A stretch of DNA of 64,000 nt from Octopus vulgaris. Lineage: Eukaryota. The position numbers were made by a program, and so were the translations under genes. Every line of letters begins with the position of its first letter. Positions within the stretch are counted from its first letter, which is position 1. Below are positions 57,222 through 57,387 of this stretch, piece after piece. The stretch is taken from NCBI GenBank assembly GCA_951406725.2, contig OX597840.1, forward strand, positions 744,001 to 808,000, in the 5' to 3' direction. The notes under the pieces are model-generated. The model was not told where the DNA came from and did no database searches. It was given only the letters and a program-made list of their open reading frames with translations.

Positions 57222-57387
57222 CCTTTTTTCTCTCCTTGTTTCTCTCCTTGTTTTTTCTGTGTCCCTTTCTGTAGAAGAGCGTAGGCTCGAAACGTAAAAG
57301 ACTTTTTCTGTTCCTGAGCGTTATACTTATAAATCTGTTTGTTTTGTACACCACCTGTCTTCGTCTTTTGTTTTTTTCGTAAACTCT

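Follow-up and report, generated by a model that had tools for sequence, protein, structure and literature searches.

A hammerhead motif with U at position 6 in the pLTRs of a Penelope-like element of Octopus vulgaris

A 36-nt motif of Octopus vulgaris can be read as a minimal type I hammerhead in which position 6 of the core is U. The consensus core base of hammerheads at this position is A (PMC3088659). The motif lies in a stretch of 64,000 nucleotides (assembly GCA_951406725.2, contig OX597840.1, positions 744,001 to 808,000), the whole of which was analysed and is called the window here. Two questions are raised by this locus: which kind of repeat carries the motif, and is a hammerhead with U6 still a ribozyme?

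The sequence-only reading described five copies of a repeat of about 180–200 bp. All five are found at the positions given for them, four on the minus strand and one on the plus strand (Table 1). As was also described, (TA)n adjoins every copy (5/5), at the fixed 3' end of the element. The unit length cannot be kept, as the repeat is the variably truncated end of a 4.2–4.6 kb element. An alignment of 177 nt between copy 5 and the 5' pLTR of a full-length copy, L076, shows 96.6% identity. The window copies are 5'-truncated 3' ends (pLTRs) of a Penelope-like element. The output of repeat finding over the window is dominated by simple repeats.

Table 1. Copies of the repeat in the window and layout of the hammerhead motif in copy 5.
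Feature	Position	Strand	Basis	Remarks
Copy 1	10050-10243	-		A7 subfamily; stem I 3' strand damaged (AGAU); C3 at 10175
Copy 2	10271-10452	-		diverged, 72% identity to copy 5; ~16 nt internal deletion takes out G12-H17; C3 at 10381
Copy 3	10868-11072	-		C7 subfamily; C-A mismatch in stem II; C3 at 10996
Copy 4	52328-52575	-		truncated but longer; motif intact; C3 at 52451
Copy 5	57222-57392	+		5'-truncated pLTR (3' end of Penelope-like element); A7/A17 subfamily
(TA)n tract	57391..57424			at the element's fixed 3' end; internal TA run at the same point in full-length copies
Minimal type I hammerhead motif, 36 nt	57265..57300	+	sequence	layout as in Fig. S3 of PMC4209133
Stem I	57265-68/57297-300	+	sequence	
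C3	57269	+	sequence	
U6	57272	+	sequence	
N7	57273	+	sequence	
Extra A	57276	+	sequence	
Stem II	57277-80/57285-88	+	sequence	
G12-A14	57289-91	+	sequence	
Palindromic ACGU	57292-95	+	sequence	
H17	57296	+	sequence	
Predicted scissile bond	between 57296 and 57297	+	sequence	

Position 7 is A, U, C, A, and A in copies 1–5, consistent with a free N7, and position 6 is U in all five. The layout is also seen as described, but the motif is intact in copies 4 and 5 only, and those of copies 1–3 are damaged. Copy 2 was thought to lack its 3' half; its actual loss is internal. The GUA triplet is present in the window copies, but the youngest subfamily has GUU. It was also proposed that the copies at 10–11 kb could give one transcript with two motifs. 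This is not supported, as copies 1 and 3 belong to different subfamilies in the tree, copy 2 is a diverged copy, and damage affects each of the three motifs. The true two-motif setting is the pair of pLTRs, 4.2–4.6 kb apart.

The full-length element is composed of a pLTR, an ORF for reverse transcriptase (RT) and GIY-YIG, and a second pLTR. L076 shows this pLTR-ORF-pLTR structure; 4,180 nt separate its two motifs, and its reading frame is shifted near the endonuclease. Locus L008 continues into an RT frame. A search of the genome (2.80 Gb, 227 contigs) for RT yielded 15,209 candidates, 111 of which were scored, 33 of them sharing one score. Twenty further loci were taken from the 111 scored matches, mostly for long open frames. 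Two flanking motifs are seen in 15 of the 20 and KPADK, YIDD, and YIGQTG within a single frame in 15; both features occur together in 13. Every family motif of these picked loci has U6. Full-length Penelope ORFs flanked by the repeat thus exist, and 16 copies share 99.1–99.9% identity over ~1,650 nt of the ORF. The copies have (TA)n flanks, one fixed 3' end, and ragged 5' ends running into the 3' UTR and the ORF. In L085, the motif is located ~750 nt upstream of the ORF.

In the Pfam search, RVT_1 scores above the cut-off and GIY-YIG below it (E 0.005). Among the 120 protein homologues listed, PF00078 is seen in many and PF01541 in some; the search of PDB for relatives of the RT-EN region found none. 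Ahead of GIY-YIG there is a linker, CSRPRCRTC or CSNPRCRTC, of the CX2-5CxxC type. This type characterizes Neptune and Nematis, which show a (TA)n bias (PMC8557442). The parent is a recently active, autonomous EN+ Penelope-like element, probably of the Neptune type judging from the linker, which is common to Nematis. Shared with the Neptune and Nematis elements of Craig et al. (2021, PMC8557442) are the single ORF, the RT, the linker, the C-terminal GIY-YIG with Cys/His, the (TA)n insertion, and the partial-tandem pLTRs.

Some side observations concern the coding region. In young copies, L085 (4330-4900) among them, ~110 further codons without a stop follow GIY-YIG, in a variable, low-complexity, pyrimidine-rich sequence, while the older L076 stops earlier. 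More distant Penelope-type RT pieces (~28–33% identity) are present beside family copies at L008 (2-979, minus strand) and L200 (2126-3025).

Minimal hammerheads (min-HHRs) in the pLTRs of metazoan Penelope-like elements, with their dimer design and weak activity, were published by Cervera and De la Pena (2014, PMC4209133). The features of this class are all present here: stems I and II, an extra base after A9, G10.1-C11.1, palindromic 15.2-16.2, and NUH. The identification as a Penelope pLTR hammerhead of minimal type I is upheld by the pLTR-ORF-pLTR copies and by the published motif layout. The closest known motif is the min-HHR of Acropora digitifera Neptune. Shared with the published min-HHRs are the short stem I, the position of the extra base between A9 and G10.1, the G10.1-C11.1 pair, the 4-bp stem II with a 4-nt loop, and the loopless palindromic C-G at 15.2-16.2; moreover, the motif is present in both pLTRs and genome-wide copies are mostly single and truncated. 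Against the consensus core, C3 U4 G5 A6 N7 G8 A9 ... G12 A13 A14 A15 U16 H17, the octopus motif deviates at A6 alone and fits at the other positions. Every legible row of Fig. S3 in PMC4209133 has A6, but A6 is required by the descriptor used there; the core variant reported in that paper is U3-A8. An alternative register in which a U is inserted ahead of an A6 is rejected, as it requires C3-A8 and agrees with the A7 subfamily only.

U6 is a family-wide state, beyond the five window copies in which it was first noticed. An exact 26-mer was counted genome-wide with position 6 left free, which gives T in 15,954, C in 380, A in 184, and G in 50 of 16,568 exact-context copies. The motif is not due to chance because the reversed 26-mer occurs 0 times against these 15,954. 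The counts at position 6 fit decay from T. Thirty loci were also chosen by a motif in the 3' flank alone; 27 of them reach the core, with U6 in 25 and A6 in two. In contigs of four runs from four organisms, no other letter reaches 3% at position 6, and N7 and H17 do vary; in three of the four runs, the summed depth peaks over the core.

The A6 copies are most likely back-mutations, because they are rare in the flank-picked sample and both rare and unclustered in the oldest subfamily. The copies of that subfamily differ by a median of 12.5% from their own majority sequence. A6 is seen there in 47 copies against 891 with another base, and the first 100 of the latter listed comprise 85 U, 14 C, and one G. 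In a tree of 20 A6 and 20 U6 copies, 13 label changes are needed against 13.7 after shuffling, although good support is limited to three of the 37 branches. Given the ratio of 47 to 891 and this lack of clustering, an A6 subfamily that is ancestral, or that has survived inside the family, is rejected. Old U6 copies are found downstream of decayed ORF pieces with 54–73% identity to the young protein. Three A6 copies on one contig (G000:C18, 76866134, 76882493, and 76898762; L080 and L081) are spaced by ~16.3 kb, a tandem duplication with coding sequence in the unit.

The comparison with related elements indicates the direction of the change. Eighty metagenome loci with RT relatives (28–69% identity in the best segment) were scanned with a descriptor tolerating one core change. 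A6 is seen in 13 of the 13 motifs found, which represent few independent families. Nine of them have the stem II of Acropora Neptune and five have C4. Because the related elements keep A6, U6 is best regarded as derived.

A sister repeat in the octopus genome, 37–46% diverged, has a homologous 3' flank, (TA)n ends, and A6. Its core exists in two forms, with 2,989 exact copies of the canonical form and 7,903 exact copies of a U4C form genome-wide. CpG decay as the origin of the canonical U4 copies is ruled out by a count of 243 at a control CpG against 2,989. The same hammerhead layout, with U, C, or A at H17, is seen at loci L132–L156 and L197–L211. No ORF was found on the motif strand around 54 copies, so that the sister repeat is a putative pLTR. 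The sequence GAGCG, at 57317–57321 in the window, lies 15–30 nt past the scissile bond in all subfamilies and in the sister repeat (~40% apart). It has the same sequence as the 5' half of stem II and might compete for the 3' strand, an inactive alternative seen in two predicted folds.

Sequence variation was compared among 217 copies, of which 156 were hand-sorted into seven U6 subfamilies (6–32% apart) and 47 into three sister groups, 14 being omitted. For the oldest subfamily, U was assigned at position 6 on the basis of the genome-wide counts. Variable columns number two of 36 in the motif against 63 of 124 ungapped columns in the flanks (Fisher p 2e-7), or 33 of 89 for the 3' flank alone (p 3e-4); most copies were gathered through motif patterns, which inflates the conservation of the motif, and columns are not independent events. 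The two variable columns are the free positions of a hammerhead, N7, with all four bases, and H17, with A or U; G17 and C17 together total only 183. No variation is seen in loop II across the seven subfamilies. The invariance of U6 by itself is no proof of selection on U6, as roughly every second flank column is likewise invariant.

Pairing of the stems is kept in 97% of stem cells among 13 representatives. The outer pair of stem I is C-G in eight rows, and both of its sides are changed in the five sister-repeat rows, a single event between lineages. Within the U6 family no covariation is seen, as the stems are invariant, and the metagenome relatives show a one-sided change in stem II. Conservation of the fold does not distinguish catalysis from protein binding.

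Based on these patterns, the U6 motif is likely an attenuated ribozyme whose hammerhead fold remains under selection and which is predicted to cut only slowly or with assistance; we give this reading a probability of about 55%. In another hammerhead, for which all pairwise mutants were scanned, mutants of the U-turn (CUGA) have low activity (PMC9901934). A natural A6C hammerhead is slow yet active (PMC3088659, PMC7151607). This motif, from phage Bcep176, is likewise a natural change at position 6; it is C in one phage sequence, shown to be active and favoured by Mn, whereas the predicted ribozyme described here has U6 fixed in no fewer than 15,954 copies and belongs to an animal retroelement. 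No A6U rate was found in the literature, and the figures or supplement of PMC9901934 may contain one.

Such a motif may serve transposition as follows. The GIY-YIG domain would nick (TA)n, the likely target and priming site. Priming by the RT would take place on a UA run located 3' to the hammerhead, and copying would proceed through the motif, leaving mostly 5'-truncated products like the five window copies. Because the RT passes through the hammerhead, it would require a template in which the bond is unbroken or has been resealed. A6U might weaken the CUGA U-turn, so that cleavage is low enough to spare templates. Slow cleavage assisted by a dimer or by protein, for example to free element RNA from read-through transcripts, could maintain selection on the other core bases. 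A further proposal, put forward with limited confidence, is that the U6 hammerhead works and that it and the U4C form of the sister repeat independently detuned the same U-turn, as a fast ribozyme would cut the RT template.

The anole element PAc Poseidon offers a parallel (Frangieh et al. 2024, PMC11167929). Its RT starts downstream of the hammerhead, its targets are AT-rich, and uncut RNA is its main template, which resembles the uncut or religated template suggested here. No core change is described for it in the available text, and its hammerhead overlaps the ORF start, in contrast to the upstream position seen in L085.

The alternative that survives best is a catalytically dead motif. Its folded RNA would be retained as a handle, gripped by the RT/EN protein or used to position the priming site, and the element would move without self-cleavage. 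This alternative is unlikely, with appreciable weight left to it. A6 is the consensus core base, and the U4C form of the sister repeat has also multiplied. The U6 form could be inert because A6C is so slow in one ribozyme, where the rate falls from 0.3 to 3.55e-6 per min at 0.3 mM Mg (PMC7151607), and because minimal hammerheads of Penelope-like elements are weak even with A6 (PMC4209133). The anole hammerhead cuts only with protein, and insertion occurs in vitro without cutting (PMC11167929). Naiad elements thrive without canonical hammerheads (PMC8557442). On the other hand, G8, G12, and a base other than G at position 17 hold in seven subfamilies, and only N7 and H17 move, a pattern of the catalytic type. 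Besides, the RNA region needed by the anole protein is the ORF start rather than the whole pLTR (PMC11167929).

Read-through of the scissile bond bears on both the attenuated ribozyme and the dead motif. Copies end ~100 nt 3' of the bond, where full-length copies carry the internal TA run. Counted over the two youngest subfamilies, copies that cross the bond number 5,830, against 76 that start within a few bases of it. The RT template would be uncut or religated at the bond, because almost all copies run through it; read-through is equally expected from circles cut and then religated. Two control windows contain 47 and 36 starts, so that starts near the bond are 1.6–2.1 times the controls, with unequal pattern lengths; this may be a small footprint of cleavage and is not counted as enrichment. 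Among 25 near-bond starts that were fetched, 21 are true truncations, mostly flanked by TA, and four are indels or mutated cores. One contig of a presumed RNA run spans the bond, which is no evidence of expression.

The opposite alternative is full activity of U6 in the cell, with help from the protein of the element, Mn, a dimer, or a contact with loop II or GAGCG; RNA circles would form after cleavage, and the RT would copy across their junction. Mn rescues A6C (PMC7151607), and help from protein has been demonstrated for one Penelope-like element (PMC11167929). The invariant loop II, the GAGCG block common to a sister repeat 37–46% away, and the number of near-bond starts relative to controls also point this way. 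However, the extra near-bond starts mostly fit TA microhomology, and no second mutation rescues U-turn mutants in the complete pairwise scan cited above (PMC9901934). This alternative is considered improbable.

It is very improbable that the sequence is kept as DNA, such as a pLTR promoter or an endonuclease site, or only through a few master lineages and chance, with the hammerhead being a relic. Other blocks in the flanks are invariant too, and sampling is biased by the motif. A folding signal is also absent: z-scores of three stretches of the family are +0.13 to +1.51, without thermodynamic support. For the dimer hammerhead of copy 5, the nearest-neighbour energy of -10.9 kcal/mol exceeds the lowest cofold energy (-20.6 kcal/mol) by a wide margin and is uninformative. 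In Rfam, no hammerhead match was obtained at E 10, which is weak evidence since the sister motif with the canonical core is missed as well; the 150 listed of 602 matches over the whole window are microsatellite look-alikes. Against this alternative, the sole variable columns are N7 and H17, for which the chance is 1 in 630, or 1 in 30 if seven positions are free, and stem pairing is maintained between lineages.

The sequence-only reading also considered a non-LTR retrozyme, and a non-autonomous retrozyme or SINE-like family with units of 180–200 bp is hardly tenable: most copies are short and ORF-less, but they are scattered truncations with 5' ends reaching the 3' UTR and the ORF of a coding element, no tandem arrays are present within the window whereas retrozymes are tandem repeats of ~150–450 bp (PMC7229834), and full-length copies with near-identical pLTRs largely refute it. 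Animal retrozymes share the type I hammerhead, the relation to Penelope-like elements, and short dispersed monomers, but they form tandem arrays that lack ORFs and are expressed as circles, while the parent here encodes RT and EN (PMC7229834; bioRxiv 10.64898/2026.07.22.740005). L013 (1460-2210) contains an ORF-less derivative with two motifs and a 533-nt tandem unit, composed of a pLTR, a 5' region, and a second pLTR, which may represent an intermediate on the way to a retrozyme.

The role of the Penelope hammerhead is debated, as RNA processing, dispensable, or a passenger (PMC8557442, PMC11167929). This genome contains a natural experiment, in which a recently active lineage had one core base changed long ago and kept the other hammerhead constraints, alongside sister repeats with canonical and U4C cores and A6 revertants in the same background. 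If the U6 hammerhead works, U6 would be a natural functional core class overlooked by every CUGANGA descriptor. The protein of the element or the dimer would then be the switch of cleavage, and Penelope families described as hammerhead-less may hide such variants. Searches based on CUGANGA would score this large family as hammerhead-free. The literature search, which covered few subscription papers, yielded no recently active element of high copy number with a fixed change at position 6, be it A6U or another. The element itself may well be already in Repbase or Dfam; in the main text of a recent octopus repeat annotation, the words "hammerhead" and "ribozyme" occur 0 times each (PMC13282606).

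Inverted pairs of pLTR copies less than 150 nt apart are seen at L053/L054 and L070. The window also contains parts of other retrotransposons. Pieces of another non-LTR retrotransposon are located at 8464-9904 (minus strand) and 24855-25256 (plus strand), with a weak RVT_1 match at 9512-9904. The remaining pieces there have no Pfam match and resemble what we take to be RT-thumb and restriction-like endonuclease regions. The C-terminal part of a LINE ORF2 is found at 26190-27092 (plus strand), with a zf-RVT match at E 3e-8.
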